Shown here: piece by piece, positions 3,425-58,261 of the stretch
Numbering within the stretch: position 1 is the stretch's first letter
Layout: each line of letters starts with the position of its first letter
Source: a virus
Virus record (IMG/VR): IMGVR_UViG_3300037512_001384
Coordinates: 6,442 to 70,441 of that record
DNA: 64,000 nucleotides
Direction: 5' to 3' (one strand)
Program-made: the position numbers and the translations under genes
Notes under the pieces: model-generated
Database searches by the model: none
Seen by the model: the letters and a program-made list of their open reading frames with translations, nothing else
Told to the model about the DNA's origin: nothing

Positions 3425-4258
3425 ATGAAAGATTCATTTGTTTTTCATAAAGACTGGTACTTAGCCTTAAAAGGGTTAGACGTTCAAGACAAAGTTGAGG
3501 TCTATGAAGCTATAATGAGCAAAATATTTGATGGTGTAGATAAGAAACTTTCGCCTGTTGCACAGATGGCAATGAATTTTATTTCGCCACAAATTGAAAG
3601 GGATGTTGAACGTTATAATTCCATTTGTGAGCAACGCAAACTATTTGGTAGTAAGGGCGGTATAGCAAAAGCTACCAAAAGCTACCAAAAGGTAGCAAAA
3701 GGTAGCAAAAGCAAGCAAAAGGTGGCAAGTGTAGCTGATAATGATAATAATATATCATCTTCTACTAACGTAGAATCTGATAATGATATTATAGATATAG
3801 AAGTAAAAGATAAATCTTTTCCTTCTAAGAAAAAAAATAAATTATTTATACCGCCTACATTAAACGAAGTAGAGGCGTATGTAAAAGAAAAAGGCTATCA
3901 TTTCAGCGCCAAGGCATTCTTTGACTATTACGAAGCGGATGACTGGCATTACGGCAAAGGCAGTAATAGAACAAAGATATCGAACTGGAAGCGCTGTTGT
4001 GCCACATGGGAGGAGCGGCGTACTACAAGTAATAATATACCTCGTGAACCCGCATCGTTGTTTGATAACCATACTCCCGAACCGGAAGACGAACAGACTT
4101 TATTACAGAAAGCATACGAAGAACTGAACGACACCCAGGAGGCTGAGATATACGGAATGGTCCCCTATGAGTTTCACATGCTGAATGAGAACGGCAAGAA
4201 ATATTGGCGCGAAGTTTACAAGGAAAAGATGCTTGATTGGATCAAGAGCAACAGATGA
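3425..4258 (+). CDS. putative replication initiator / replisome organizer
   Basis: The N-terminal domain (FHKDWY..RKLFGSKGG) and the W-rich C-terminal block (FFDYYEADDWHYGKG..ISNWKRCCATWEERR) resemble phage replisome-organizer proteins. The central linker is encoded by iteron-like repeats plus an AT-rich tract. Confidence 0.45.
   Translation: MKDSFVFHKDWYLALKGLDVQDKVEVYEAIMSKIFDGVDKKLSPVAQMAMNFISPQIERDVERYNSICEQRKLFGSKGGIAKATKSYQKVAKGSKSKQKVASVADNDNNISSSTNVESDNDIIDIEVKDKSFPSKKKNKLFIPPTLNEVEAYVKEKGYHFSAKAFFDYYEADDWHYGKGSNRTKISNWKRCCATWEERRTTSNNIPREPASLFDNHTPEPEDEQTLLQKAYEELNDTQEAEIYGMVPYEFHMLNENGKKYWREVYKEKMLDWIKSNR
3661..3730. repeat. seven phased 10-bp units each ending AAAA (iteron-like array inside the organizer gene)
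   Basis: tatagcaaaa gctaccaaaa gctaccaaaa ggtagcaaaa ggtagcaaaa gcaagcaaaa ggtggcaagt. GCTACC and GGTAGC are inverted relative to each other. Confidence 0.85.
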
Positions 4259-6150
4259 GCGACAATATTCTTTATGTAGAGGATTTCAGACACGTCTTAG
4301 GCAGCAGGTCATCAGGTAACATAAAAACCTTCTGTCCTTTCTGCCATGAGAATCGTGGAAACAAGAGGGATAAATCCCTTTCGATAAACTGCGCGACCCT
4401 GGCATATAACTGCCATTATTGCGGTGCGAGCGGTTATCTGAAATCCCGGCATGAGGAAATGATGCGGAGAATAGACAGGGAAACAAGACAGATGTCCAAG
4501 ACTTATCGCAAACCCTCGGTCAAGCCCAACCTTCAACCTAAGCTCAATGCGGACATGGTTGAGTATTTCAAAGGGCGCGGCATCAGCGAGAAGACACTTC
4601 TTGAGGCGAAGGTCACAAAGGAGAATTTCTTTTTCCCGCAAGACAATTGCAAGCGCGGATGTATCGCTTTCAACTACTATGTTGATGACGAGCATATCAA
4701 CACCAAATATCGCACAAGGGACAAGCATTTCGCATTCATTGCCGGTGCCAAGGTAGTCCCCTATAACATAGACAGCATAAGAGAGAGCGCATTCAAGAAG
4801 GGTGAAAAGAAAATCTGCATCATCACTGAAGGTGAAGCGGATACTCTCACTTATATCGAATGCGGCTATAAGCATGTCATATCCATGCCGTCCGGTGCTA
4901 ACACCAATCTGGAATGGATGGATGACTTCACCGAATCCCACTTTGATAAACTTGAACTGATTTATGTATCGACAGACAGTGACAAGAAGGGTGTTGAAGC
5001 CAAGAATGAGATAGTACGAAGGTTTGGAGCTGAAGTATGTAAGATAGTTGAGTATCCGGAAGACTGCAAGGATATAAACGAGGTTCTTGTCAAATATGGA
5101 CCGGAGAAGGTAAAGGAATGCTTCGAGGGTGCTGCGGATATTAGAATCCAAGGTGTCGAGGAACTTGTTGACATAGAGTCAGACCTTGACAACCTGTTTA
5201 CTTCGGGACTTCAAAAGGGAGTAACCCTGGGATTGGAGGATATGGATAAACTTCTGTCCTTCAATACCGGAATGGTGACGGTCGTTACAGGAATCCCTTC
5301 GCACGGCAAAACCCAATGGTTGAATTTCGCTCTGATCAGACTCAATATCCTTCACTCATGGAAGGTGGCGTTCTTCTCTCCTGAGTTCTATCCTGTAGCG
5401 CTGCATATATCCCAAATCATAGAGACGCTTGGAGGTAAAAGGTTCTCATCCCAGAACTATACGCCTCAGACTTACGGCATCCTGAAGGAGTATGTCAACA
5501 AGAATTTCTTTTGGGTGGATCCTGATGACACGGATATAAGCTCAGTCTTGGACAGAGCCAAGTTCCTCATCCGCAAGAGAGGTATCAAGGCGTTTGTGAT
5601 TGACCCTTTCAATTCGCTGACAGACGAGAAGCGAACGATATACAAGCAGGATGAATATATTTCGGACTTCCTGCAGAAGATACGATGGTTCGCCAGGAAG
5701 TATGACGTTGCAATGTTCATCGTCATGCATCCCACCAAACAATACAAGCAGGATAACGGCTTATATCCGGTCTGTGACCTGTACTCATGTAAGGGTGCAT
5801 CTGAGATATACGACAAGGCTGATATCGGCATCACCGTATGGAGAAACGAGCAGGGTAATTACGGTGAGGTGCATGTGACCAAGATGAAGTTCCGTCACAT
5901 GGGACAGAAAGGACATGACACTTTCGTCTATAACTTCAATAACGCCCGGTTCGTTGAGATTCCCACTATGGACGCGAAGCGTGTGGCTCCCGACATGGAT
6001 AAAGTGAAGTGGGATAACAGCAATTATGTAATTGAGAATATCAAGACGCAGCAGAATCAGCAGGAATTGGATTTTGGAGCGGAGCAGCCGGAAACACCAC
6101 ATAATGAAAAACCCTTTGATGCGCCGATAGACGAAGATATCCCGTTCTGA
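4255..6150 (+). CDS. bifunctional primase-helicase (zinc finger + TOPRIM + DnaB/RecA-like helicase, T7 gp4-like)
   Basis: CPFC..CHYC zinc motif, TOPRIM ICIITEGEADTL and DSDKKG, Walker A GIPSHGKT. Start taken at the ATGA overlap with the preceding stop. Ends DEDIPF. Confidence 0.85.
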   Translation: MSDNILYVEDFRHVLGSRSSGNIKTFCPFCHENRGNKRDKSLSINCATLAYNCHYCGASGYLKSRHEEMMRRIDRETRQMSKTYRKPSVKPNLQPKLNADMVEYFKGRGISEKTLLEAKVTKENFFFPQDNCKRGCIAFNYYVDDEHINTKYRTRDKHFAFIAGAKVVPYNIDSIRESAFKKGEKKICIITEGEADTLTYIECGYKHVISMPSGANTNLEWMDDFTESHFDKLELIYVSTDSDKKGVEAKNEIVRRFGAEVCKIVEYPEDCKDINEVLVKYGPEKVKECFEGAADIRIQGVEELVDIESDLDNLFTSGLQKGVTLGLEDMDKLLSFNTGMVTVVTGIPSHGKTQWLNFALIRLNILHSWKVAFFSPEFYPVALHISQIIETLGGKRFSSQNYTPQTYGILKEYVNKNFFWVDPDDTDISSVLDRAKFLIRKRGIKAFVIDPFNSLTDEKRTIYKQDEYISDFLQKIRWFARKYDVAMFIVMHPTKQYKQDNGLYPVCDLYSCKGASEIYDKADIGITVWRNEQGNYGEVHVTKMKFRHMGQKGHDTFVYNFNNARFVEIPTMDAKRVAPDMDKVKWDNSNYVIENIKTQQNQQELDFGAEQPETPHNEKPFDAPIDEDIPF

Positions 6151-9292: not shown

Positions 9293-9363
9293 GGTCGTAT
9301 GGCGTAATGGTAGCGCAACAGACTTTGGTTCTGTGTGTCCCGGTTCGATTCCAGGTACGACTA
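9293..9363 (+). tRNA. tRNA-Gln (anticodon UUG)
   Basis: Manual cloverleaf: acceptor GGTCGTA/TACGACT (G1-U72), anticodon stem ACAGA/TCTGT, loop CTTTGGT, T arm CCCGG-TTCGATT-CCAGG (one C-A mismatch). No encoded CCA. Confidence 0.8.
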
Positions 9364-26667: not shown

Positions 26668-27510
26668 TTATGTGCCGGTGAAGAACCCCATACCGCTCAA
26701 GTCGAGATTATCGGCATCCACGCAGATGTAACGTGATGTCATGTTCTCGTTCTTGTTGTGGTTCATCAGGGCGCAGATGACGGCACGCGGCACACCGCGC
26801 AGAGTCAGGTTGGTGGCGAAGGATCTCCGGGCCGTATGACTCCCGACATACTCGTACTTGGGTCGCGTCTGCGTCTTACCGTGATAGAATATCTTGGTTT
26901 CCTGACTGATACCGCATCGGCGACAGATACGTTTGATGACATCGTTATAAACGGCTCTGTTATGTTCGCCGGTGGGCTTGTACTGCAGGTAACGCATGAG
27001 GTTGCGATGTATCGGTATGGAGCTCTCCACCTTCGTCTTCTGACTCACATAACACAGTCTGCCGTCAATGATGTTATGCTCGGTGAATGACTTGACATCG
27101 GACGTCCTGGCACCGCAGTAGCACTCGATGAGGAAAGCCGCCTTGATGTCCCGTTCCGTGTCATTATGGGGAACATATCGTTCGATACGCTCTATCTCCT
27201 CTTCCGTGAGATAGACGTTCTGTGACGGCACTCTCTTAGCCTTCAATTCCTTCCCGGGATTCTTACAGGGGAATAAATTCTCATCCAGATAAGCGGAAAG
27301 GAAAGCCTTCAATACGGCGAGATAGGTACATGCCGTATTACCGGCTACGTTGTCACAGATATTATCCCTCATCTCGGACAGGTTAAGCGTCGTGAGGTCG
27401 CTCCACTGCACCTCCTGAACGCCTATCGCATCACGCATATACCGAAGGATATGCGCATAGCTGGGTTGTCTTCTGACAAACTCCTGCTCAAAACTTAAAA
27501 TTCCGTTCAT
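26668..27510 (-). CDS. tyrosine recombinase (phage integrase family)
   Basis: CGARTSDV (Arg I), HTARRSFATNL (HxxR), MNHN.. and the terminal ..MTSRYICVD (catalytic Tyr). Confidence 0.85.
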   Translation of the reverse strand: MNGILSFEQEFVRRQPSYAHILRYMRDAIGVQEVQWSDLTTLNLSEMRDNICDNVAGNTACTYLAVLKAFLSAYLDENLFPCKNPGKELKAKRVPSQNVYLTEEEIERIERYVPHNDTERDIKAAFLIECYCGARTSDVKSFTEHNIIDGRLCYVSQKTKVESSIPIHRNLMRYLQYKPTGEHNRAVYNDVIKRICRRCGISQETKIFYHGKTQTRPKYEYVGSHTARRSFATNLTLRGVPRAVICALMNHNKNENMTSRYICVDADNLDLSGMGFFTGT

Positions 27511-27696
27511 ATCATTTGGTTTTTATTGATTACGACGAGTGAAGCCGGACAATATCCCATCGTCCGGCTCCTGATTAACCTAAATACTTATGTGGTAAAA
27601 ACGTACACACGAAAGTATGTGTAAACATGTTGACCACACTGCTACGACTATGGTAATCTTGCTGCCGGAGGACGTTTTACCGTCATCCGGCATTGT

Positions 27697-29073
27697 TTAC
27701 AGGCGCAGTGTACCCGCTCTTGCCGCCTCACAGCGTCTCAGCACCTCCTTACGGTCACGTATGAGTATCCTGGCTCTCATATCCATACCTTCGCCCGTGG
27801 GCTTATCCAGGACACCTATCGCAACCATCGTGAGGAAGTCCTCGATTGCCATACGGCGTGTAAGAAGGAAGGGGAACATACCGAAGTTACGTGGCGTCAA
27901 CTCTGTCCTGCCTTGTGACTCCTGCAGGAAGAGGCATTCGGGTTGTCCCTTGATAGTAACGGTGACACATGGCGCATCCTCCTGTCCCGGGATGTCAAGC
28001 ACGGAACCGGTAAATGTACCTCTGCAGACAAGGTTGAGCAGTATAGCATCCTCGATGTACTCCGTATCTGCATATCCGCATTGTACGCGCACGTCATCAA
28101 TGCCGTCTGAGTAGAGCATATCACCCTTACCCATCAGGTCCTCGGCACCGGTATGGTCGAGGATGACACGCGAATCAATACCCGATGCGACGCGGAACGC
28201 GATACGTACCGGGAAGTTCGCCTTGATGTTTCCTGTCACGATGGTCGCCGACGGACGTTGCGTGGCTATGATCATGTGGATACCGACGGCACGGGCTTTC
28301 TGTGCGATACGGCATATCATACGCTCCATATCCTTCCCGGCTGTCATAATAAGGTCGGCATACTCGTCTATGACCACGATGCAGTAACGCATGTAGTCTT
28401 CACCGTTGAGCTTGTCATTATACTCTTTGATGTTACGTACTCCTTTCTGCGAGAGAAGGGTGTAACGGTACTCCATGAGGTTAATGACACGCTGCAGGAT
28501 AGCGACAGCATCCTCTGTGGTCGTGGCTATGTCATCGGCGAGATACTTGTGCCAGAGAGGAGCGTAGATGTTGAGCTCAACCTGTTTGGGGTCGATGAGC
28601 ACCAACTGCATCTCTTCCGGTGTGCGCTTGCTCATCAGTGAGAGCAGCAGCATGTTCAGGCATACCGACTTACCTTGACCGGTCGCACCGGCAATAAGCA
28701 GGTGCGGCATCTGTGTGAGGTCACGGATGAAGAGTTCTCCCTGTACCGTCTTGCCTATGGCGCATGGAAGTGCCATCCTGCAGGACTCGTAATCGACATG
28801 ATGCAGAACGCTGTCCATGTGTACTATCTGACGTTGGAAGTTGGGAACCTCAATGCCAATCGTACCGCCTGCGAGCGGTCCCATGATGCGTACCGACTCC
28901 GTACCGACCGCCAAGGCAAACTCATCAGCGAGTCTGCGTACACGTGTCATATTCACACCCATATCCGGTCTGAACTCATACAGGGTGACGCTGGGTCCTT
29001 TCGTGACTCTCCAGCTCAGCGGTTCAATCTTATGAACCCTGAGCACCTGTTCTAACTTGTAAGTGTAATCCAT
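27697..29073 (-). CDS. FtsK/SpoIIIE-family DNA translocase-like ATPase
   Basis: Walker A AGATGQGKS, Walker B VVIDEYADL, ATQRPSATIVTGNIKANFP..GAEDLMGKGDML. Start set at MDYTYK by the cassette. Confidence 0.85.
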   Translation of the reverse strand: MDYTYKLEQVLRVHKIEPLSWRVTKGPSVTLYEFRPDMGVNMTRVRRLADEFALAVGTESVRIMGPLAGGTIGIEVPNFQRQIVHMDSVLHHVDYESCRMALPCAIGKTVQGELFIRDLTQMPHLLIAGATGQGKSVCLNMLLLSLMSKRTPEEMQLVLIDPKQVELNIYAPLWHKYLADDIATTTEDAVAILQRVINLMEYRYTLLSQKGVRNIKEYNDKLNGEDYMRYCIVVIDEYADLIMTAGKDMERMICRIAQKARAVGIHMIIATQRPSATIVTGNIKANFPVRIAFRVASGIDSRVILDHTGAEDLMGKGDMLYSDGIDDVRVQCGYADTEYIEDAILLNLVCRGTFTGSVLDIPGQEDAPCVTVTIKGQPECLFLQESQGRTELTPRNFGMFPFLLTRRMAIEDFLTMVAIGVLDKPTGEGMDMRARILIRDRKEVLRRCEAARAGTLRL

Positions 29074-29157
29074 AATGATTGTTTGAGTTATTATTGGCGG
29101 AGCAGCTGATGTCACTCAATCAGCTCCAGGACGTGGGATTTGTCCTTTGGAAAAGTG

Positions 29158-33308: not shown

Positions 33309-33854
33309 TCAGATCTCGTAGAAGGGAATCTGGTCATCGGCTGTCATCCTTCCTGTAAGCAGTTGGAAGAAGACCGTCTCATAACGTCTATGCTCAGGAC
33401 CTTCGGAATTTCTCATACAATCGAAGTATTTCTCCATTGCGGCTCGTCTGGTCATTACCTCTGTGTCGTTGTAGCAGATGACAGTTACCTGCTCTTCGAG
33501 TTTACTTTCAGCTAAACCGCTGAGAGCAGATGCTTTTGGTTCACTGAGTTCCTTGTCAAGCGTAGCCCATACGTCTATGAGAGATTCACCGAGATAGTTT
33601 AGAAGGCTGTCGCCAATCACCCATTCGGTCTCCTTGCCGGATACTTCCGTAGATACCTCGAATCGTAGTTCTCCGTCAGAATCAGCCATAACGGAATGAC
33701 ACAATTCCTTGGCGCATACCTCACCTTCAAGGAAGAAGATTTGTACGGGCTTCTTGAACTTATGGCAAACTCCCATACCCAGGCGGTTGAGCATATCACT
33801 AATCATCTGGCGTTTGGCGGCCTCAATCATCGTTTCATAAACTTGTCTTTGCAT
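33309..33854 (-). CDS. hypothetical protein
   Basis: Cassette-defined start. Confidence 0.55.
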   Translation of the reverse strand: MQRQVYETMIEAAKRQMISDMLNRLGMGVCHKFKKPVQIFFLEGEVCAKELCHSVMADSDGELRFEVSTEVSGKETEWVIGDSLLNYLGESLIDVWATLDKELSEPKASALSGLAESKLEEQVTVICYNDTEVMTRRAAMEKYFDCMRNSEGPEHRRYETVFFQLLTGRMTADDQIPFYEI

Positions 33855-43863: not shown

Positions 43864-44463
43864 AGTTGCGCGTATTTAAGGTTAAACAATATTCGTAAGC
43901 GGACCGGCAATCTTTCAGCCGTTCCGCCCTGTCCTGTGTCTTTCATCTCTCAGGCGTTTTCCAATAGATTCTAAGTTTAACCATAACTCTGAATCCCACA
44001 GCTCCGGCCTACCGGAGATTCCAGCGGAATTATTCTCAGGCGGAAAAGGGAAATAAATTCCGGTCCGCGAGGAAAGCCCAGGGATTCGCGTAACGATACG
44101 CAAATCCGCATAATCCGCTGATTAGGGATGATGTTCAACGCTGCCGTATAATCCGCGCTCCGATTACTCACTGTTTCGGCTTTCATCTTTCACTACTTGC
44201 CTATATCACTTTCAAACGGAGTGCGCCCTGATCCTGCACGCAGCGCAAAAGCACCGGTACAGGACCGCACGGGAACAGCGCCCGCTATCCGCCAGCTCTT
44301 TGCAGAACAGCCGGAAATATTCGCGTCCAATATGTCAATGTACGTTTTATTAACTTGCACCCTTCACGGAATCCAACCGCGCCCAGATAAGCAGCTCACC
44401 TGGGTTGCAAAAAGGGTATGATCCAAGCGCCCACCTGATAGGCAAATCCTTTCAGATAGGCAC

Positions 44464-44500
44464 AAAAAAGATAGGCGGCGGAAAGTATCCGCCACCTATC
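44464..44500 (-). terminator. rho-independent terminator (minus strand)
   Basis: Minus strand: GATAGGTGGCGG..CCGCCGCCTATC followed by TTTTTT. Confidence 0.75.
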
Positions 44501-44515
44501 AAACAGGGTTAAAAT

Positions 44516-45100
44516 TTAATCAACTTTGCAAACTCTTGTAAAACCAAATTTTGCCAACAGTTCAGGAGTTAAAAGACTTGCGTCTATTCCAAGACTTGCG
44601 GCCAGACTTGCGGACGCTCTTTGCAATTGCTTTTCATTTGCCTGCTTGCGTGCAGTCCGTGCAACTTCATCCCTGAATATATCGTAACTATTAAAACAAG
44701 TACGGAGGCCAGCGGCCGAAATTGTAGTTTTACGGTATGGAGTTAAACCGCTTTCCGTATTTCCTATTGTGTTTGTATCCGCTTCACTTTGAAAAGTGAT
44801 TGTAAAGTTGTTTGTTGCTTTCCTCACTTTTGCAAACACCCTCAAAAACAGATATTTTTCTGTTGCCATAAAAGGAGCGGAACGGAAAGAATCCGCAAAA
44901 CAAGCGGATAATTTATTAAGGTTTTCGGCCTCAATACTTGCGTTTTCGTTGTCAATACTTGCAAGTAGTTTGCTAATTGTGGTTTTACTTGCGTTTGCTT
45001 TTCTCAATTCCTTAACTGAAATACTTGTTACCAGTGTTTCAAGTTCAACGGTTGAAATACCTGAATAAAGGTAATCAACAAGATTTTTGTTTACTTGCAT
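44516..45100 (-). CDS. hypothetical protein (first gene of the leftward block)
   Basis: Cassette-defined start. Has its own terminator. Confidence 0.55.
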   Translation of the reverse strand: MQVNKNLVDYLYSGISTVELETLVTSISVKELRKANASKTTISKLLASIDNENASIEAENLNKLSACFADSFRSAPFMATEKYLFLRVFAKVRKATNNFTITFQSEADTNTIGNTESGLTPYRKTTISAAGLRTCFNSYDIFRDEVARTARKQANEKQLQRASASLAASLGIDASLLTPELLAKFGFTRVCKVD

Positions 45101-45763
45101 AGTTGTAATATTTAAGAGTTAATAAAATAGTGTCAAAGTGCGCATATCGGAAACACCTTTCCGACACTATAAAATTACAAAAATAATCCGATATAATGCC
45201 AATATTTGTATATTTAACTTATGTTTAATTGATTGATATATAGTAAGTTATAAAGAAAGATTATACAATATTGTAGTATATATACAGGTTATTATTGTAT
45301 ATATACATAGATAGTTAATTATATAATAACTTAAATATATAGATATTTAACGGAAAAATACTTACAAATTGATCCCAGAGTTTCGGCAATAGGTGCAAAC
45401 CGATGAACACACAACCAACACGGCAATAAAGCGGAAAAGTTGCAAGGAGCGACAAACCCCACAACGGACCGACAACGCGACCGCGAGCGGATACAATACA
45501 ATTATAATGTATTTGTTTTGCAGGAAAAACCGCGCGAATACCCCACCCAGAGAAGGCTACCCCCGACCCCCTAAATACGTTTGTATTGCGTGGGGGTCAG
45601 CCCCCGCCGAGATTTTCAATTTTTCATTTTTCGTTTTTACTTTTCGTATGCGGAACATGTTTCTGTGTATCTCAATCGGTGTTTCTGGTCTATATATATC
45701 AGTCCTGATGCCGTGTATCCTTGTCTGCGCGTTGATTATGGTCTGATACATGGGTATCTATGG

Positions 45764-45845
45764 AAAAAGGGTCAAAAAAGCCTGAAAAAGCCCCAAAATA
45801 CCCTGAAAATAGGGGTCAAAAAGAGGTGCTTTTCCTCAAAAAAGG
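45764..45845. repeat. helically phased A-tracts (predicted intrinsic bend)
   Basis: A-runs start at 45764, 45774, 45785, 45795, 45806, 45818 and 45838, spaced 10-12 bp. GGGTCAAAAAG occurs twice. Confidence 0.75.
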
Positions 45846-45865
45846 CTGTTTTTGGCGTATGAATG

Positions 45866-45982
45866 TACCAAAAATGGAATTTGATGTACCAAAATAGAGA
45901 TTACCAAAAAAAAACGTAAGTTATTGAAATATAGGGTAGATATTTGTCATGCAATGAACCAAATGAACCAAATGTACCAAAT
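45866..45982 (+). repeat. six (G/T)(T/A)ACCAAA(A/T) repeats upstream of the D5-like helicase gene
   Basis: gtaccaaaaa 45866, gtaccaaaat 45887, ttaccaaaaa 45901, gaaccaaat 45956, gaaccaaat 45965, gtaccaaat 45974. Confidence 0.8.
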
Positions 45983-46025
45983 TTCGATACCCAGGTATTG
46001 GTTTGTTTAGTTATTGTTTTTATAT

Positions 46026-47483
46026 ATGGGTAAAGGTACACAAAACAACAATTTCACGCTTATTGAAGACCTTAGTAAGCTGATTTACAACTCGCTGAAC
46101 AAAGCTCCGTTGAAGGAGTCCTATAAGCTGTATTCATCGGGTGACAGGGTATATGTCTATCAGGAGGTCATCCTTGATGCCTGCAGCAAGTGTTTCCGGT
46201 CTTACATGGGTGATGTATATTACTTCGACGGCAGGATATGGTGTCCTCTGGCTGATATTGTGCTTGAGACTGCGTTGAGCAAGGCGTTGGTGCAGGGAGG
46301 AGCGCGTAAGTCGGATATCGTGAATGCCAGGAGCAAGATTCTGTATTCGGCACGTGGCGGTGCGTCGATGTCACCGTTGGAGTTGCGTGCGTCGGTCATC
46401 GGATTCCGTAACGGCGTATGGGATTTCACTGACATAGACAACCCGGTCTATCACTCTTTTGCCGAGCGTATGCCTGTGGTGCGGATACTCCCTTACGACT
46501 ATGACCCTGATGCGGGCTGTCCGAAGTGGCAGGCGTTCCTGCAGTCCATCTTGCCGAAGGGTGAGATAATGAAGCTCCAGAAGTACCTCGGTCTCGGCTG
46601 TGCTGACCGTAAGAGCATGACGCATAAGATTGAAGAGACGCTGTGGCTCATCGGGTCGGGTGCCAACGGCAAGTCCACCATCTTCGACGTGGTACGCGGG
46701 GTGTACGGTGCGGATAACATCAGCTATGTGGGTCTCGATACGCTGCTTAGCGGCTCGTCGGACGTGCGTGCGCGGTTCATCGGGAGCATCGTGGGTAAGA
46801 TCTTCAACTACTGCTCGGAGATACAGGCGGATGACATATCACGTTACGCCGATACCTTCAAGTCCCTCTGTTCGGGTGAGCCGCAGACCGTGAGAAGGTT
46901 GGGTCAGAACCCCGAGACCACCTTCGACATACCGTTCCTTGTGTTCAACATGAACCAGAAGCCCACGAACCGGCGTATGGACCAGGCTCTCGTGCGCCGT
47001 CTGCTCTTCATACCTTTCAAGACCACCGTCTCTGCCGCCGACATGAACCGTGAGCTCTCGTCGGAGCTGCTGAAGGAGCTGCCGGGTATCCGCAACTGGA
47101 TGATAGAGGGCTATAAGATGCTCATACGTGACGGCTATCAGTTCAACACCACCAAAGCCGCCGATGATGAGATGACCGACTACATGCTGGAGAACGGTCA
47201 GACGGTGCAGGTGTTCCTACAGAAGAAGGGCTACTCATGTAACAGGCGCACGGGACACTGGGAGGACCGTATCCAGTGGGTTCCTGCGTCCGCTCTCTAT
47301 GAGGACTATGTGTCGTTCTGCGAGAAGTGGCTGCAGGATCCTGTCAAGCAGCGTGCTTTCGGCAGTGAGATGGCACGTCTCGGATGGCATGAGACGGGAG
47401 GGAACCGCAAACGTACCGGCACGGGTTACGCCTACGGCATCTTCTGCGAGAAGGATATCGATTACGCAAAAAATAACATCTGA
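46026..47483 (+). CDS. P4-alpha / poxvirus D5-type primase C-terminal domain with SF3 helicase
   Basis: YDPDAGCPKWQAFLQSIL..LQKYLG..WLIGSGANGKSTIFDV (Walker A). ORF trimmed to MGKGTQ. Confidence 0.8.
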   Translation: MGKGTQNNNFTLIEDLSKLIYNSLNKAPLKESYKLYSSGDRVYVYQEVILDACSKCFRSYMGDVYYFDGRIWCPLADIVLETALSKALVQGGARKSDIVNARSKILYSARGGASMSPLELRASVIGFRNGVWDFTDIDNPVYHSFAERMPVVRILPYDYDPDAGCPKWQAFLQSILPKGEIMKLQKYLGLGCADRKSMTHKIEETLWLIGSGANGKSTIFDVVRGVYGADNISYVGLDTLLSGSSDVRARFIGSIVGKIFNYCSEIQADDISRYADTFKSLCSGEPQTVRRLGQNPETTFDIPFLVFNMNQKPTNRRMDQALVRRLLFIPFKTTVSAADMNRELSSELLKELPGIRNWMIEGYKMLIRDGYQFNTTKAADDEMTDYMLENGQTVQVFLQKKGYSCNRRTGHWEDRIQWVPASALYEDYVSFCEKWLQDPVKQRAFGSEMARLGWHETGGNRKRTGTGYAYGIFCEKDIDYAKNNI

Positions 47484-47486
47484 GCT

Positions 47487-47768
47487 ATGGTGACGGGAAG
47501 AGACAGACAGCCGCTCTCGGAGGAGCAGGAGCGTGAGATAAGGAAGGAGCTGGAGATGATGGACGCCGACGAGCGTGCCATGCTCGCGGGTTACGGACTC
47601 CCGCAGATAAGACGTATCCGTGACATCTGCCATTCGGACATGCAGCCGGATGCGATGAGCGCGATACTGCGTATGGAGGGTTTCGTCAACATAGCCGATG
47701 ACATAGACCGCCGCCTGGAGGAATACAGGCAATACAGGGAGAAGCATAAAAACGACACTATTGTTTAA
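47487..47768 (+). CDS. hypothetical protein
   Basis: ORF-track ORF. Its stop lies inside the next leader motif. Confidence 0.45.
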   Translation: MVTGRDRQPLSEEQEREIRKELEMMDADERAMLAGYGLPQIRRIRDICHSDMQPDAMSAILRMEGFVNIADDIDRRLEEYRQYREKHKNDTIV

Positions 47769-55359: not shown

Positions 55360-58107
55360 TTAATTATAGTGTGGTGACAGCTTACGCACTGTCCTTACCC
55401 GGTTTCCTTTCTGGAGCCAGTTGGGTACGGTAGCCTGCGTATGCTTGATGTCGAAAATCTCACGCATAAACAGAGCCTCGAAGAAGTCCGGTGAGTGACC
55501 TACGACGGCTTTGTTCTTCATCTGTTCCTTGTGAATAAGACACCATCCCTTATCGGCTTTTGACATATCCTGCTTGACGCATTTACGTTCAAGCTGCAGG
55601 ATGGCATATAATGTCTTGATCTCCTTTCCTATCTTGTATTTGCGCTGCAGCAGTGTCGGCTCGATGCTCCATCCGGACTGCTGTGTGCGCTCCGCGAACT
55701 TGTAAGCGCACTGTGACTTCTTGTTGTCATAGAGATGCTTGTCCTTGACGGACACAGCCTCCTGGTTGTTGAACGGTACGGCACGCGGGAACGCACCTTT
55801 GAGCACCTGTCCCATTCCGTTGAGGTCATAGGCGAAGTTCTCCTCCAGCACACCCCACTCACGCAGTTTCTCTTTCAGCATGGATGCGGTGGTGAAGGGG
55901 TCACGACGGCATACGAAGACATCGGCGACATGCCATCCTATCCACAGCCATGTGACGCAGTTGTCACCGCCGTCACCTGCTACGTCACAGGTGGCGCGAC
56001 GTATCTTGTCACCTACCATCTGTGAGTTCTTGAAGCAGGAATCGAGATGGAACGGCTGTATCATGTCATCACCCATCTTGATGATGTCCCAGTTACCGTC
56101 GAACTCACGGGCCCTGATTTCAGGAGGTTGGTTGAGCAGTGATGCTATATAACCCGGGTCGTTCTTGAGCAGCGCCTTGTTGTCCTTGAGGTTAGCCTTG
56201 ACGAAAGTGACCGATTTGACGAAGAAGGAGGTCTTGGTGTAGCCGTACTGCTCCCACTCGGGGTCCCATGCGTCATCAATCATCTCCTTACACTGCTCAT
56301 ATACCTCTTCGGGTGTGTCACCCCAGATGATGTTATCCACGCTATCATCCGGCATGTAGCAGTAACGCAGCACGCCGTCACGCTCCGGTATGGCGAACCC
56401 TTTGCGTTCCGGGTGTTTCTTACCGTCGAGATAGACGGTATCCTCCTTGCCTATCCACCAGTCCACGAACTTACGCAGCCATGACAGAGGGTCGGGGTTG
56501 CAGGTGCCGAGGATACGAGAATGGACACCGACGGTGTTACGGTTACAGGTCATCAGGAACTTGAACATCTCGAACGGCATCTGCGGCAGCTCGTCGATAC
56601 CGATATACGCGAACTGCTGTCCACGGAACTTTCTGTCGAAGTCCGCCATCGGCATGTCGTAAATGGTCAGTCCCAGCTTGGCTCCGGAACGGAAGTTCCA
56701 GGTCATATCATCCTTGGACTTGTTGTATCGTCCGAGTCCGGAGAACCAACGCTGGCTTTCGTTGATGATATTATCGAAGTCATCCTTGTTCCTTCTGAAG
56801 ATGTAACCATTAAAGTGCTTGTTCTTGATGTCATACATCGGTTCCATGAGCATTGTCACGGTATTGTGGTTGATGGTGTATGCATCGGTCAGATACAGGT
56901 GGTCACGTCCGGTGACGGTGATGCAACGGCACTGCTGCTTGGTATGATCCTTCGTTATGTACTGGATTTTCTTGGACAGCATGTTGGTGCATTGCGGGTT
57001 GGTCGGACATTCGGCGTTGACCCTGACAGTCCGGTCCGCTCCGCTGCCTTTCCTGAACAGTTCCTTGTCGTTCGGCGCCTTCATGGTGACGCGCCACCAT
57101 CCGAGGTAATTGGGTTCATCCTCTACCTGATGCACACGCGCCCATATACCCAGCGAGCGTGCGAGTTCAGCTATATCATCTATGAAATCCTTGTTCGGGA
57201 GTGTGATTATCGGACAGTTATGTCTTGTACGTCCGGAGCGTGCCATGATGCCAAGCAGGTATGACCATCTCACGGACACCGCTGCAGTCTTATACTCATG
57301 CGGTATGCGACAGGGCTCTTCCTGTCTGCAGCATGTTATCCTGCGTCTGTTTTCGTCGCTGATGCCGCGAATATAGAAGAAGCCGTCTTCTGCGTTGAGG
57401 TTGACCTTATAACCCCAAGCGCGGTATCTGACACGCATGAACTTGTCATCATCGAGGCGGATTCCCTTCTTGCCGAACTCCCATGTCCCCTTGCTGCTAA
57501 GAACGCCGAGCAGATACGGATGTATAGGCATATCGATGGCGGTCTTCTGCTCGTTCATCTCCACCTTGCCACAGAGCGGTATCTCCACATACTGTGTCTT
57601 ACCCCTACGCAGTGACATAGGGAACGGACGGTCTATGACGTAGTTGTCGAATATCTCACGTGCGGTCATCTCATGGTATATGTCACCTGCACCCACGCGA
57701 GCCCAGAACCGGTGGTTGTTCATGCATTTGAGTGTCGTGCCGTCATCGAAGTGTAGCGTGTATATCGTCTGCTCACCCTGCTCGAATATCTCACTGACCT
57801 TCTGAACGCCGTTGTAGGGCGTACATATAAGGTCGCCCACCTCCAGGTCGCCCATCCTGCGGAATCCCGAGGGTGTGGCTACCATAGTGCTGTAGGGGTT
57901 GGCTTTGCCGCCGCCCCTGTTGCCGCCGAACACCGTGATGTCCGCGACATTACCGAGTCCGAACTCCTGAGCGCCATCCTGGACGATGAAATATTTGTTT
58001 TTCTTGTCCGTTTCGGCTATCGTCCGAATATGCGGTAAAAAATCGTGACTAAAGATGTTCTTTCCATCCTTAGTACGTAACGCTGTCAAGCATGTTGAAT
58101 CCTGCAT
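55360..58107 (-). CDS. terL: terminase large subunit interrupted by an intein in the Walker A motif
   Basis: FGGNRGGGK | intein | TVTM.. restores GxxxxGKT. Downstream are IGIDE (Walker B) and LGTCNPD. ATG at 58107 is preferred over GTG at 58152. Confidence 0.85.
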   Translation of the reverse strand: MQDSTCLTALRTKDGKNIFSHDFLPHIRTIAETDKKNKYFIVQDGAQEFGLGNVADITVFGGNRGGGKANPYSTMVATPSGFRRMGDLEVGDLICTPYNGVQKVSEIFEQGEQTIYTLHFDDGTTLKCMNNHRFWARVGAGDIYHEMTAREIFDNYVIDRPFPMSLRRGKTQYVEIPLCGKVEMNEQKTAIDMPIHPYLLGVLSSKGTWEFGKKGIRLDDDKFMRVRYRAWGYKVNLNAEDGFFYIRGISDENRRRITCCRQEEPCRIPHEYKTAAVSVRWSYLLGIMARSGRTRHNCPIITLPNKDFIDDIAELARSLGIWARVHQVEDEPNYLGWWRVTMKAPNDKELFRKGSGADRTVRVNAECPTNPQCTNMLSKKIQYITKDHTKQQCRCITVTGRDHLYLTDAYTINHNTVTMLMEPMYDIKNKHFNGYIFRRNKDDFDNIINESQRWFSGLGRYNKSKDDMTWNFRSGAKLGLTIYDMPMADFDRKFRGQQFAYIGIDELPQMPFEMFKFLMTCNRNTVGVHSRILGTCNPDPLSWLRKFVDWWIGKEDTVYLDGKKHPERKGFAIPERDGVLRYCYMPDDSVDNIIWGDTPEEVYEQCKEMIDDAWDPEWEQYGYTKTSFFVKSVTFVKANLKDNKALLKNDPGYIASLLNQPPEIRAREFDGNWDIIKMGDDMIQPFHLDSCFKNSQMVGDKIRRATCDVAGDGGDNCVTWLWIGWHVADVFVCRRDPFTTASMLKEKLREWGVLEENFAYDLNGMGQVLKGAFPRAVPFNNQEAVSVKDKHLYDNKKSQCAYKFAERTQQSGWSIEPTLLQRKYKIGKEIKTLYAILQLERKCVKQDMSKADKGWCLIHKEQMKNKAVVGHSPDFFEALFMREIFDIKHTQATVPNWLQKGNRVRTVRKLSPHYN
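56863..57903 (-). mobile_element. 347-aa intein with a degenerate LAGLIDADG domain, Ala at position 1, ends HN, +1 Thr
   Basis: Block A ANPYSTMVATPSGFRRMGDL, block B LKCMNNHRFW, LAGLIDADG-like YLLGVLSSKG and YLLGIMARSG, block F/G CRCITVTGRDHLYLTDAYTINHN|T. Confidence 0.75.
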
Positions 58108-58261
58108 ATTTCTTATACATTTTTGACAAAGATATTTCAGAACAAGTGTCACATACGGTGTATTTCATTGGTAAAATGAAAGATTACCAAAATAAAAGCG
58201 CTTAGGAAAACACCAATCACTATAATTTGGCGAAAAATCTTTACAAATTATAGCAATTGGT

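Follow-up and report, generated by a model that had tools for sequence, protein, structure and literature searches.

The ~0.9-kb gap at 45101-46025, upstream of a D5-like helicase gene in a Prevotella-type phage, is a conserved non-coding module made up of a predicted promoter facing outward at either end, readily melting DNA, a bend and repeats specific to the helicase lineage (positions refer to the window, the whole 64-kb stretch of DNA analysed). Its anatomy, the statistics of its parts, its conservation and its linkage to the helicase gene were observed directly. The best reading, to which we assign a probability of roughly 0.55, is that of an iteron-type replication origin fused to the autoregulated promoter of the helicase gene. 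Such elements are known, but none has yet been described for this widespread group of gut and rumen phages. An initial annotation of the gap had listed an AT-rich stretch with a palindrome, a C/A-rich stretch, T-tracts, phased A-tracts and a repeat cluster; all were recovered where it had placed them, far beyond chance and with small corrections. The features are as follows.

45120-45177, minus strand: attenuator-like stem-loop ATAGTGTC...GACACTAT followed by UUUUAUU, in the leader of the 194-aa gene (dG -14.7, z -2.4)
45185-45178, minus strand: leftward -7 box TATTTTTG, a perfect TAnnTTTG, 78 nt before the ATG of the 194-aa gene (44516-45100)
45168-45367, no strand: AT-rich segment, the least stable duplex of the window by nearest-neighbour energies
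45264-45275, no strand: palindrome TACAATATTGTA within the AT-rich segment
45396-45495, plus strand: A+C-rich, T-poor stretch (72% A+C, 6% T), the 100-nt stretch highest in A+C in the window
45490-45644, plus strand: single-copy conserved core of ~150 nt, the only place in the window matched by sequence model R1 (47.4 bits, E 5e-13)
45493-45510, no strand: core palindrome ACAATACA-AT-TATAATGT (alignment A3)
45565-45598, no strand: G/C hairpin GACCCCC...GGGGGTC, occupying the place of GGGGTACACCCCC in relatives
45605-45644, plus strand: CGCCGAGATTTT box leading into an array of five T-tracts that recur every 7 nt, predicted straight
45764-45843, plus strand: A-tracts in helical phase, where the predicted intrinsic curvature of the 64-kb window is greatest
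45863-45909, plus strand: three distal direct repeats, ATGTACCAAA at 45863, ATGTACCAAA at 45884 and a degenerate copy, AGATTACCAAAA, at 45898
45939-45946, plus strand: helicase -7-like box GATATTTG, with 7/8 matches to TAnnTTTG (family consensus TAAATAAAGGgTTTATCTTTGCA)
45954-45981, plus strand: three tandem 9-bp repeats, ATGAACCAA, ATGAACCAA and ATGTACCAAA, at the predicted transcription start
46026-47483, plus strand: D5-like SF3 helicase gene, with a C-terminal winged helix encoded at 47142-47480

Both promoters were predicted from the Bacteroidetes sigma-A consensus (TAnnTTTG with TTTG at -33); the signal of a generic sigma-70 scan was not above that of shuffled sequences. The leftward TAnnTTTG box was kept in 8/9 loci, where it lay 66-141 nt upstream of the leftward gene and was often accompanied by a -33 TTTG. 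Of 56 regions upstream of the helicase gene in relatives, 50 had a perfect TAnnTTTG on the helicase strand and 8 on the opposite strand, and in the window the corresponding box predicts transcription of the helicase gene to start at approximately 45951-45955. The earlier description of the gap as a divergent control region is upheld by these host-type boxes, which face outward at both ends and are kept in relatives. The absence of a convincing ORF between the divergent genes was likewise borne out, with no conserved ORF found in 45101-46025 and indels in the alignment of its conserved part that are not multiples of three. A coding role for the ATG-containing tandem repeats was considered and rejected: in the window they share the reading frame of the helicase ATG but are cut off from it by a TAG at 46008, in one relative (L004) they are out of frame, and in many relatives the repeat unit is ATG-TAG.

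The further proposal that the gap is the main early regulatory switch was not sustained in the sense of an immunity switch, there being no recognisable repressor-type gene adjacent. A lambda-type switch repressor was sought in the 194-aa gene and, for eight relatives, in their non-homologous leftward genes, with no significant HTH, S24 or regulator-domain match. The leftward genes adjoining the gap differ between relatives, and the sole domain exception among those tested was an IS3 transposase in L011. In LoVEphage, a cultured Bacteroides phage with the same module at ~9-10 kb, CI-like and S24 genes are found at 19.9-21.0 kb, with the CI-like repressor ~11 kb from the module. Transcriptional control could nevertheless be the only function of the gap, with the AT-rich and bent DNA as UP-like or architectural elements, the repeats as operators of a lineage-specific regulator (the helicase or an unlinked protein), the core as the binding site of a conserved transcription factor, and replication starting elsewhere, for example at an array in a DUF6291 gene. 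The promoter boxes kept at both ends would fit such a role, as would the early-type genes of the leftward block, which include an anti-restriction homologue. The ~750 bp between the promoters, however, far exceed what promoters need, and no recognisable regulator gene adjoins them. We regard an exclusively transcriptional role as the main rival reading, a genuine though minority possibility.

The two physical extremes of the window, its least stable 200 bp and its strongest bend, both lie in the gap, which argues for an origin. The segment 45168-45367 has a dG of -1.01 kcal/mol per step against a window mean of -1.39 (sd 0.06), and may serve in melting, as an upstream element for the leftward promoter, or both; its adjoining the leftward gene start, in the window and in several relatives, is what a purely transcriptional role would predict. 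Within it, the repeated TTGTATATATACA reported previously is a pair at 45269 and 45290 with 21-bp spacing and 89% identity, the first copy carrying a 3-nt insertion. Curvature predicted with a wedge model, as the initial annotation had proposed, reached a plateau of at least 30 degrees at ~45770-45855 with a peak at 45840, so that the global maximum of the 64-kb window falls on the A-tracts. These start at 45764, 45774, 45785, 45795, 45806, 45818 and 45838 (spacings 10, 11, 10, 11, 12 and 20); of the seven tracts said to be phased at 10-12 bp, six are so phased and the seventh lies two turns further on. Shuffled sequences reached a maximum A-tract chain of 3. The same tendency was seen in relatives, the least stable 100 bp of the locus lying at most 1.5 kb upstream of the helicase gene in 31/35 and the curvature maximum in 27/35. 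The A+C-rich stretch at 45396-45495 is not conserved in sequence (alignment A1). AT-rich bent DNA with repeats around a transcription start is also typical of a strong regulated promoter.

Between the AT-rich and bent segments lies the conserved core, which in all relatives examined lay upstream of the helicase gene and on its strand, at helicase identities as low as 36% in metagenomes and 31% in LoVEphage. A blastn search of 44400-47600 against cultured phages gave no match, and the relatives were reached only by protein-level searches. Outside its training set, R1 matched 18 relatives, LoVEphage (E 3e-4), a P. distasonis prophage (E 2e-5) and a Prevotella sp. P2-180 prophage (E 4e-12). Its negative controls were 19 chance loci from an exact scan of viral contigs for the 14-mer TCGCCGAGATTTTT, a scan that was itself uninformative, giving 120 mostly chance matches. 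A two-block DNA pattern proved specific, in that all six loci retrieved by DNA alone (6/6) carry the helicase gene 300-470 nt downstream. The CGCCGAGATTTT/T-tract block is the best-conserved block of alignment A3 and is a candidate unwinding element (45605-45644). Its T-tracts, which start at 45613, 45620, 45627, 45634 and 45641, confirm the array described earlier and correct its spacing from about 8 to exactly 7 nt; no chain longer than 3 arose in 200 dinucleotide shuffles, against the 5 seen here. The columns of the core palindrome are invariant or nearly so across the 34 sequences of alignment A3, with no compensatory changes. In the window its left arm has two mismatches to the family consensus ACATTATA-N-TATAATGT, and this arm is degenerate in the window's own sublineage. 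The single-copy core lies 300-600 nt upstream of the helicase start site and is far better conserved than the surroundings of either promoter, which speaks against transcriptional control as its only role.

Such nucleotide conservation, together with a G/C hairpin followed by T-runs, could also point to a gene for a small non-coding RNA, or to a primer RNA, with a TATAAT inside the palindrome as its promoter and the T-tracts as its terminator. This reading was rejected on the results of an Rfam scan, in which no family matched at the gap (the sole match being a tRNA at 9293), of RNAalifold, which showed no consensus structure beyond the invariant palindrome, and of single-sequence folds that were no better than shuffles (z -0.8 and -1.5). 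Moreover, a conserved 20-nt unpaired block separates the hairpin from the T-run and TATAAT is not of the Bacteroidetes promoter type, leaving an RNA product highly improbable. We consider it equally far-fetched that the core is a packaging site (pac or cos) or a recombination site (attP or dif-like), as might be suggested by a single-copy, conserved site with a palindrome and G/C-rich blocks, by portal and terminase genes 5-10 kb downstream in the same synteny block and by a tyrosine recombinase and an FtsK-like protein encoded in the window. The core is linked instead to the helicase gene, while in the window the terminase and recombinase genes are 10-19 kb away, and the contig ends of relatives do not fall at the core. 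An attachment site in particular is contradicted by the finding of the core intact, with phage genes on both sides, in an integrated P. distasonis prophage, and also within a 190-kb contig of Prevotella sp. P2-180. The P. distasonis record 'plasmid 22', which contains a relative of the helicase, was considered as a possible episome and set aside: it carries ileS and a BamA/TamA-family gene and therefore looks like a chromosomal contig with an integrated prophage, giving no support for episomal replication.

The repeat cluster reported beside the helicase gene was confirmed as five exact copies of ATGWACCAAA and one degenerate copy. The exact copies, at 45863, 45884, 45954, 45963 and 45972, are all the exact matches in the 64-kb window; the six copies fall within 120 bp, none occurs elsewhere in the window at full match, and no second cluster was found there. 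All six are direct and lie to the right of both the T-tract array and the AT-rich block, with the -7 box between the distal and the proximal copies. The proximal tandem repeats (45954-45981) are a candidate operator or, alternatively, origin-proximal iterons; their position exactly on the predicted start site is a classic operator position, which a purely transcriptional role would also explain. A link to the intergenic region between terL and the head genes had been drawn from the recurrence of a 12-mer at 58181. This was dismissed as chance because only 10 12-mers of 45101-46025 recur elsewhere in the window, below the mean of 16.9 for random 925-bp segments, and because the copy at 58181 scores only 12 bits on the repeat matrix, comparable with about a dozen scattered sites.

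Conservation of the repeats in related genomes, on which the initial annotation had staked its proposal, was found for position and number class, with a sequence that varies by lineage. In 20/20 relatives analysed the first tandem repeat begins at +12 to +16, counted from the first base of the -7 box, with 4-8 nt between box and repeats, and 0-3 distal copies are present at -30 to -190 from the box. The matching motif is nearly absent from the rest of these loci (0-3 copies in 5-7 kb). Inverted copies occur in some relatives (the 43% group, L145, L156 and LoVEphage). The repeat sequence follows the helicase lineage, taking the forms ATGAACCAA, ATGAACAAA, ATGTAGCAA, GTGAAGCAA, ATGTAGGCA and ATGTAGGTT, and ATGTATAGT in LoVEphage. 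Motif distance correlated with the distance between C-terminal domains when the ATPase core was controlled for (partial r 0.23, permutation p 0.0005), compared with 0.09 for the reverse control and -0.02 for the N-terminal domain; this is a weak correlation, which shared ancestry confounds.

The helicase gene product contains the Pfam domains D5_N (4e-7) and DUF5906 (3e-12), and its best sequence match of solved structure in a PDB profile search was 7OLA, SaPI5 PriRep (4e-5). Its AlphaFold model (pLDDT 87) matched the folds of ASFV C962R, MPXV E5, D5 and SaPI5 PriRep in Foldseek (E ~1e-13). This model-based fold assignment places the protein among SF3 helicases of the D5/SaPI-Rep type, which have a D5_N collar and a P-loop ATPase, and at the level of fold only it likens the predicted C-terminal winged helix to the origin-binding domain of phage P4. 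Sources annotate its relatives as 'phage/plasmid primase, P4 family'; it has no primase domain and no adjoining primase gene. SaPI5 PriRep, a self-loading helicase, recognises iterons beside its own gene through its C-terminal winged helix (PMC9371898). A winged helix of predicted origin-binding type fits poorly with a role of the gap in transcription only. The earlier suggestion of an origin served by the D5-like helicase gains comparative support from the linkage of module and gene, the lineage-tracking repeats and the P4-type winged helix, and as a reading of sequence it stays a probable one.

From these observations we infer which protein would bind which site, where the duplex would melt and that replication would start here. 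Two host-type (Bacteroidetes sigma-A) promoters would fire outward from the ends of the module, and the ~750 bp between them would supply the parts of an iteron-type theta origin: an AT-rich stretch for melting, the core, bent A-tracts and six direct repeats. The core palindrome, G/C hairpin and T-tract array are a candidate site of assembly and unwinding. The D5-like SF3 helicase would act as a self-loading initiator of the phage P4 alpha or SaPI Rep type, its C-terminal winged helix binding the RTGWAnnnA repeats. Binding at the distal repeats and the core would lead to melting and helicase loading, whereas binding at the three tandem repeats on its own transcription start would repress the helicase gene, much as RepA does at the P1 oriR iterons. 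The helicase itself is unlikely to read the palindrome, because the palindrome is invariant while the winged helix diverges.

The cumulative GC skew of the window has its minimum at ~45 kb, and was considered and discarded as evidence for an origin. The minimum coincides with a switch in gene orientation, and only ~18 kb separate it from the skew maximum although the genome measures ~107 kb, which would make the arms very unequal; since transcription direction explains it, the skew is not independent evidence. The phage also has a second, more canonical origin candidate, consisting of six tandem 10-bp repeats with an AT-rich stretch inside a DUF6291 gene that is followed by a Toprim/DnaB-type primase-helicase gene, at 3.4-6.1 kb, and an origin in the gap is therefore not required by default. 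This separate origin-like array beside a primase-helicase is what would be expected if the gap served transcription alone. LoVEphage points the other way: it has the module, with the helicase as its sole annotated helicase- or initiator-type gene within the 50 kb examined, and its CI-like switch is elsewhere.

In the replication origins of SaPI and PICI elements an AT-rich region is flanked on either side by oppositely oriented iterons, and the iteron sequence is allele-specific (PMC9371898, PMC6092414). The window resembles them (Rep/Pri-Rep systems) in having an initiator of the D5/P4 SF3 helicase family with a C-terminal winged helix, and short repeats with an AT-rich candidate melting region directly beside the initiator gene, in an initiator-specific sequence. 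It differs in that the module lies upstream rather than downstream of the gene, in that its 9-10-bp repeats are direct throughout and confined to one side of the T-tract array, and in that three of them overlap the predicted transcription start of the gene itself. The one-sided, same-orientation arrangement departs from the two-sided rule of SaPI/PICI origins and argues against a layout of that type. In addition, a long invariant core beside variable repeats has no SaPI/PICI counterpart, and the window system is without a primase domain or adjacent primase gene.

In phage P4, ori and crr carry octamer repeats (TGTTCACC) bound by the winged-helix domain of the alpha protein. P4 alpha belongs to the same helicase family, but has a primase domain and needs crr as a second cis site ~4.5 kb away, and the P4 repeats are unrelated in sequence to those of the window. 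The order of parts is also similar to that of P1 oriR, in which, as described in the work of Chattoraj and Austin, host-factor sites are followed by an AT-rich block of five 7-bp repeats, a spacer and direct iterons that hold the initiator promoter. P1 RepA represses itself through these iterons, and the five 7-nt T-tracts and the promoter embedded among repeats in the window closely match this arrangement, seen in iteron plasmids. P1 RepA is, however, not a helicase and recruits host DnaA and DnaB, and its iterons are 19 bp; no DnaA box (TTATCCACA, at most one mismatch) was found in 45101-46025. The core origins of SV40/polyomavirus and papillomaviruses use an SF3 initiator and contain a palindromic binding element at their centre, beside an A/T tract where the duplex melts. 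The window shares the SF3 helicase, the palindrome and the adjoining A/T tract. The SV40-type palindrome is built of the initiator's own binding sites, whereas that of the window is invariant while the DNA-binding domain of the helicase diverges, and lineage-specific direct repeats lie elsewhere in the module.

A more speculative extension, which we think rather unlikely to be correct, takes the invariant ~150-nt core (palindrome, G/C hairpin, CTGACC..CGCCGAGATTTT and 7-nt T-tracts) as the signature of an undescribed class of phage origin, in which the palindrome would be read by a conserved factor, encoded by the host or formed by an unvarying part of the helicase, and the repeats would give helicase-allele specificity. 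Such a class may span a broad Bacteroidota phage lineage from LoVEphage to ~105-kb rumen Prevotella phages. The window phage would then have two initiation systems, the DUF6291 and gp4-type primase-helicase system at ~3.7 kb and the SF3 helicase at ~45.6 kb, which could serve different phases of the life cycle.

The phage group is among the most prevalent temperate phages of human gut viromes and has many rumen Prevotella relatives. The window phage itself recurs in identical form in the read sets SRR8543131 and SRR11060108. Among induced temperate phages, LoVEphage is reported to be the one detected most often in viromes of the human gut (PMC12629997), and two LoVEphage papers make no mention of a replication origin (PMC8525569, PMC12629997). 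Under the preferred reading of an iteron-type origin, a defined origin with its cognate self-loading helicase would give a minimal replicon for Bacteroides and Prevotella vectors, and would indicate where the control of replication, and any incompatibility among related prophages, might be sought. Within the family, winged helix and repeat motif have changed in naturally occurring pairs that lend themselves to work on the evolution of SF3 initiator specificity, and the invariant core is a well-defined starting point in the search for a conserved origin factor, which the host may encode. In the LoVEphage record the module gap is apparently filled with spurious ORFs of 30-40 aa; R1 finds the module reliably and its use would prevent such annotation.

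The features previously listed for the gap between the leftward 194-aa gene and the helicase gene proved both real and extreme, with duplex stability, A+C content, T-tracts, A-tracts and repeats all confirmed.

Features of the gap
45101-46025: gap between the 194-aa gene (minus strand) and the helicase gene (plus strand)
45185-45178, minus strand: perfect TAnnTTTG box facing the leftward gene
45168-45367: the 200 bp with the lowest duplex stability in the window
45396-45495: highest A+C content of the window
45490-45644, helicase strand: single copy of the conserved core, matched by R1, a sequence-only model of that core
45939-45946, plus strand: -7-like box on the helicase side, GATATTTG

The T-tracts, described as lying at about 8-bp spacing, do form an array, although with an exact 7-nt period; five tracts are in register, where shuffled sequences reach a chain of three at most, and the array is predicted to be straight. 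Six of the reported seven phased A-tracts are spaced at 10–12 bp, the seventh lying two turns further on, and by the curvature prediction proposed as a check, the DNA bends more strongly here than anywhere else in the window, with a plateau of at least 30 degrees per 30 bp from approximately 45770 to 45855. The cluster of six repeats upstream of the helicase gene comprises five exact ATGWACCAAA sites, which fall within 120 bp and are the only ones in the window, and one degenerate copy, all in direct orientation and to the same side of the T-tracts. Outside the cluster just one site matches the repeat matrix strongly (AGTGAACCAAAA, 15.0 bits, 33534-33545, minus strand, within early-block ORF 33309-33854) and may be due to chance, and the suggested link to 58181 was abandoned, recurrence of the 12-mer AGATTACCAAAA there being at chance level. 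No DnaA boxes were found in the gap.

The phage genome is approximately 105–107 kb (two public runs hold identical contigs, the longest of 107 kb), and the part represented by the window encodes a large terminase, portal and head proteins and a single tRNA-Gln. The 930-aa terminase (55360-58152, minus strand) has Hint and homing-endonuclease (Hom_end) matches and therefore contains an intein. Ninety-odd loci with 35–99% identity in the helicase protein were collected from metagenome and virus catalogues. The nearest cultured phages by this protein are LoVEphage-type Bacteroides, Phocaeicola and Parabacteroides phages (~31% identity), and prophage relatives occur in Prevotella sp. P2-180 and Bacteroidales MAGs; the host is therefore a member of the Bacteroidota, most likely Prevotella, so that promoters should be judged by the Bacteroidetes consensus (-33 TTTG, -7 TAnnTTTG). 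One relative, filed as circular plasmid 22 of Parabacteroides distasonis (NZ_OY725767.1), contains ileS, a lipoprotein signal peptidase gene and a BamA/TamA-family gene as well as an integrated prophage beginning at the integrase (25587), and is likely a misfiled chromosomal contig.

In every locus with enough upstream sequence, a non-coding gap of 0.6–1.5 kb precedes the helicase gene and the flanking genes diverge. Alignment of these gaps (A3) revealed a conserved core of approximately 150 nt consisting of an invariant or nearly invariant palindrome, ACATTATA-N(1-3)-TATAATGT, a T/G-rich spacer of ~35 nt, GGGGTACACCCCC, then TTTTAAC followed by ..GGGCACCCGTACTGACC, and finally TTCGCCGAGATTTTT merging into T5-6 tracts at 7-nt intervals. 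The window copy is somewhat degenerate, with two mismatches in the left palindrome arm and a longer hairpin, GACCCCC...GGGGGTC, in place of GGGGTACACCCCC. In each of 18 relatives outside the model-building set, R1 detected a single copy, which lay upstream of the helicase gene and on its strand (E 3e-16 to 6e-5). It also matched LoVEphage (E 3e-4) and the prophages of P. distasonis (E 2e-5) and Prevotella sp. P2-180 (E 4e-12), whereas 19 unrelated viral contigs gave no match. Six viral contigs were retrieved with a two-block DNA pattern of the core, all with the helicase gene 300–470 nt downstream. The 100 bp of lowest duplex stability in a locus lay no more than 1.5 kb upstream of the helicase gene in 31/35 loci, and the curvature maximum did so in 27/35. 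Six ORFs of 30–47 aa annotated across the LoVEphage core and repeats (L219 1427-3029; MW660583.1 ~8.8–10.4 kb), each 'hypothetical, no HHsearch hits', probably reflect erroneous gene calling in non-coding DNA.

The description of the gap as a divergent control region was borne out by outward-facing -7 boxes at both ends. Of 56 distinct relatives, 50 have a perfect TAnnTTTG on the helicase strand no further than 260 nt from the start codon (8/56 on the other strand), with the surrounding consensus TAAATAAAGGgTTTATCTTTGCA, and equivalents of the box facing the leftward gene were present in 8/9 loci, often with a -33 TTTG. Two or three tandem RTGWAnnnA units of 8–10 bp each start 4–8 nt past the -7 box, falling on the predicted transcription start; 0–3 extra copies precede the box by 30–190 nt, and the rest of each locus has almost none. 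Position and tandem arrangement of the repeats are thus kept in 20/20 relatives analysed, whilst the unit itself is lineage-specific (ATGAACCAA, ATGAACAAA, ATGTAGCAA, GTGAAGCAA, ATGTAGGCA, ATGTAGGTT, ATGTAGGAT, ATGTATGA), LoVEphage carrying ATGTATAGT in both orientations.

The 485-aa helicase belongs to SF3 with D5_N and DUF5906 domains, and no primase domain was found in it. Its best sequence match of solved structure is the SaPI5 PriRep helicase 7OLA, and its AlphaFold model (pLDDT 87) matches ASFV C962R, poxvirus D5/E5 and SaPI5 PriRep. A separate model of the C-terminal domain (pLDDT 85) predicts a winged helix that best matches RFX DNA-binding domains, Cdc6/ORC winged helices and the phage P4 origin-binding domain 1KA8; mean divergence of this domain among relatives is 0.61, against 0.40 for the ATPase core. 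In SaPI Reps, which are self-loading at the origin, a C-terminal winged-helix domain reads short iterons beside the gene (PMC9371898), and PICI origins follow the same logic (PMC6092414). Repeat-motif distance correlates with helicase distance, and the residual, small though significant, tracks the C-terminal domain (partial r 0.23, p 0.0005) and not the core or N-terminus; because of shared ancestry, this lends weak support to a putative pairing of repeats and helicase. The palindrome appears too conserved to be read by so variable a winged helix, and would have another reader.

The most economical reading, and a plausible one on comparative sequence grounds, is that the module combines an iteron-type origin with an autoregulated promoter driving the initiator gene; the suggestion in the initial annotation of an origin served by the D5-like helicase thus stands as a candidate with comparative backing. 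The iterons would contain the promoter of the helicase gene, a layout close to that of P1 oriR (AT-rich 7-mer array, spacer, iterons containing the rep promoter, rep gene) but with an initiator of P4-alpha/SaPI-Rep type. A purely transcriptional element is less favoured because the two promoters are separated by ~750 bp that they do not need, part of it a single-copy invariant core, and because in the 50 kb of LoVEphage examined the helicase gene is the only annotated helicase- or initiator-type gene, the genes for the CI-like repressor and S24 being ~11 kb away from the module. The latter distance also argues against the main early switch of the initial annotation in an immunity-type sense. 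Counting against an origin are the direct repeats lying to one side of the T-tracts, the lack of DnaA boxes, a palindrome apparently too conserved for the helicase's winged helix and another, more canonical candidate near 3.7 kb; GC skew is no independent evidence. That the core is a packaging site is unlikely, the element being linked to the helicase and not to terminase. A structured RNA was unsupported, and an attachment site is excluded, with the core intact inside integrated prophages. Iteron origins beside self-loading SF3 helicases are already known; what is new is how the parts are arranged, the invariant core, and that the element occurs throughout a prevalent lineage of Bacteroidota phages.

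The candidate near 3.7 kb (3660-3930) carries six tandem 10-bp repeats (AGCTACCAAA twice, AGGTAGCAAA twice, AGCAAGCAAA and AGGTGGCAAG) inside a DUF6291 gene (ORF 3425-4258, plus strand). It resembles lambda-type origins, which lie within the gene for a replisome organizer, and probably serves the phage as its other origin. Directly after the repeats comes the duplex that ranks second in the window for low stability (3731-3930), curvature peaks at 3681, and the next gene encodes a Toprim and DnaB_C primase-helicase (4237-6150). TACCAAA is common to the first two units and the 45.9-kb repeats. A tyrosine recombinase (Phage_integrase) gene directly adjoins an FtsK/SpoIIIE translocase gene (26668-29115, minus strand) at the plus-to-minus strand switch and cumulative GC-skew maximum (~26.5 kb), a Xer/FtsK-like pairing suggestive of a role in dimer resolution or integration. 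Another FtsK-like domain occurs as a fusion with a PD-(D/E)XK nuclease (571-2658).

The leftward 194-aa gene is lineage-specific and lacks conservation in relatives, its product has no family match, and leftward genes of different lineages are non-homologous. It forms a self-contained unit of -7 box, attenuator-like leader stem-loop (45120-45177, minus strand, followed by UUUUAUU; dG -14.7, z -2.4), ORF and strong intrinsic terminator with a 13-bp stem (44500-44470, minus strand), and resembles a moron inserted beside the conserved module. In relative L011 an IS3-family element with HTH_Tnp_1 and rve ORFs is inserted directly left of the core (4030-5405), suggesting that DNA on this side is dispensable.
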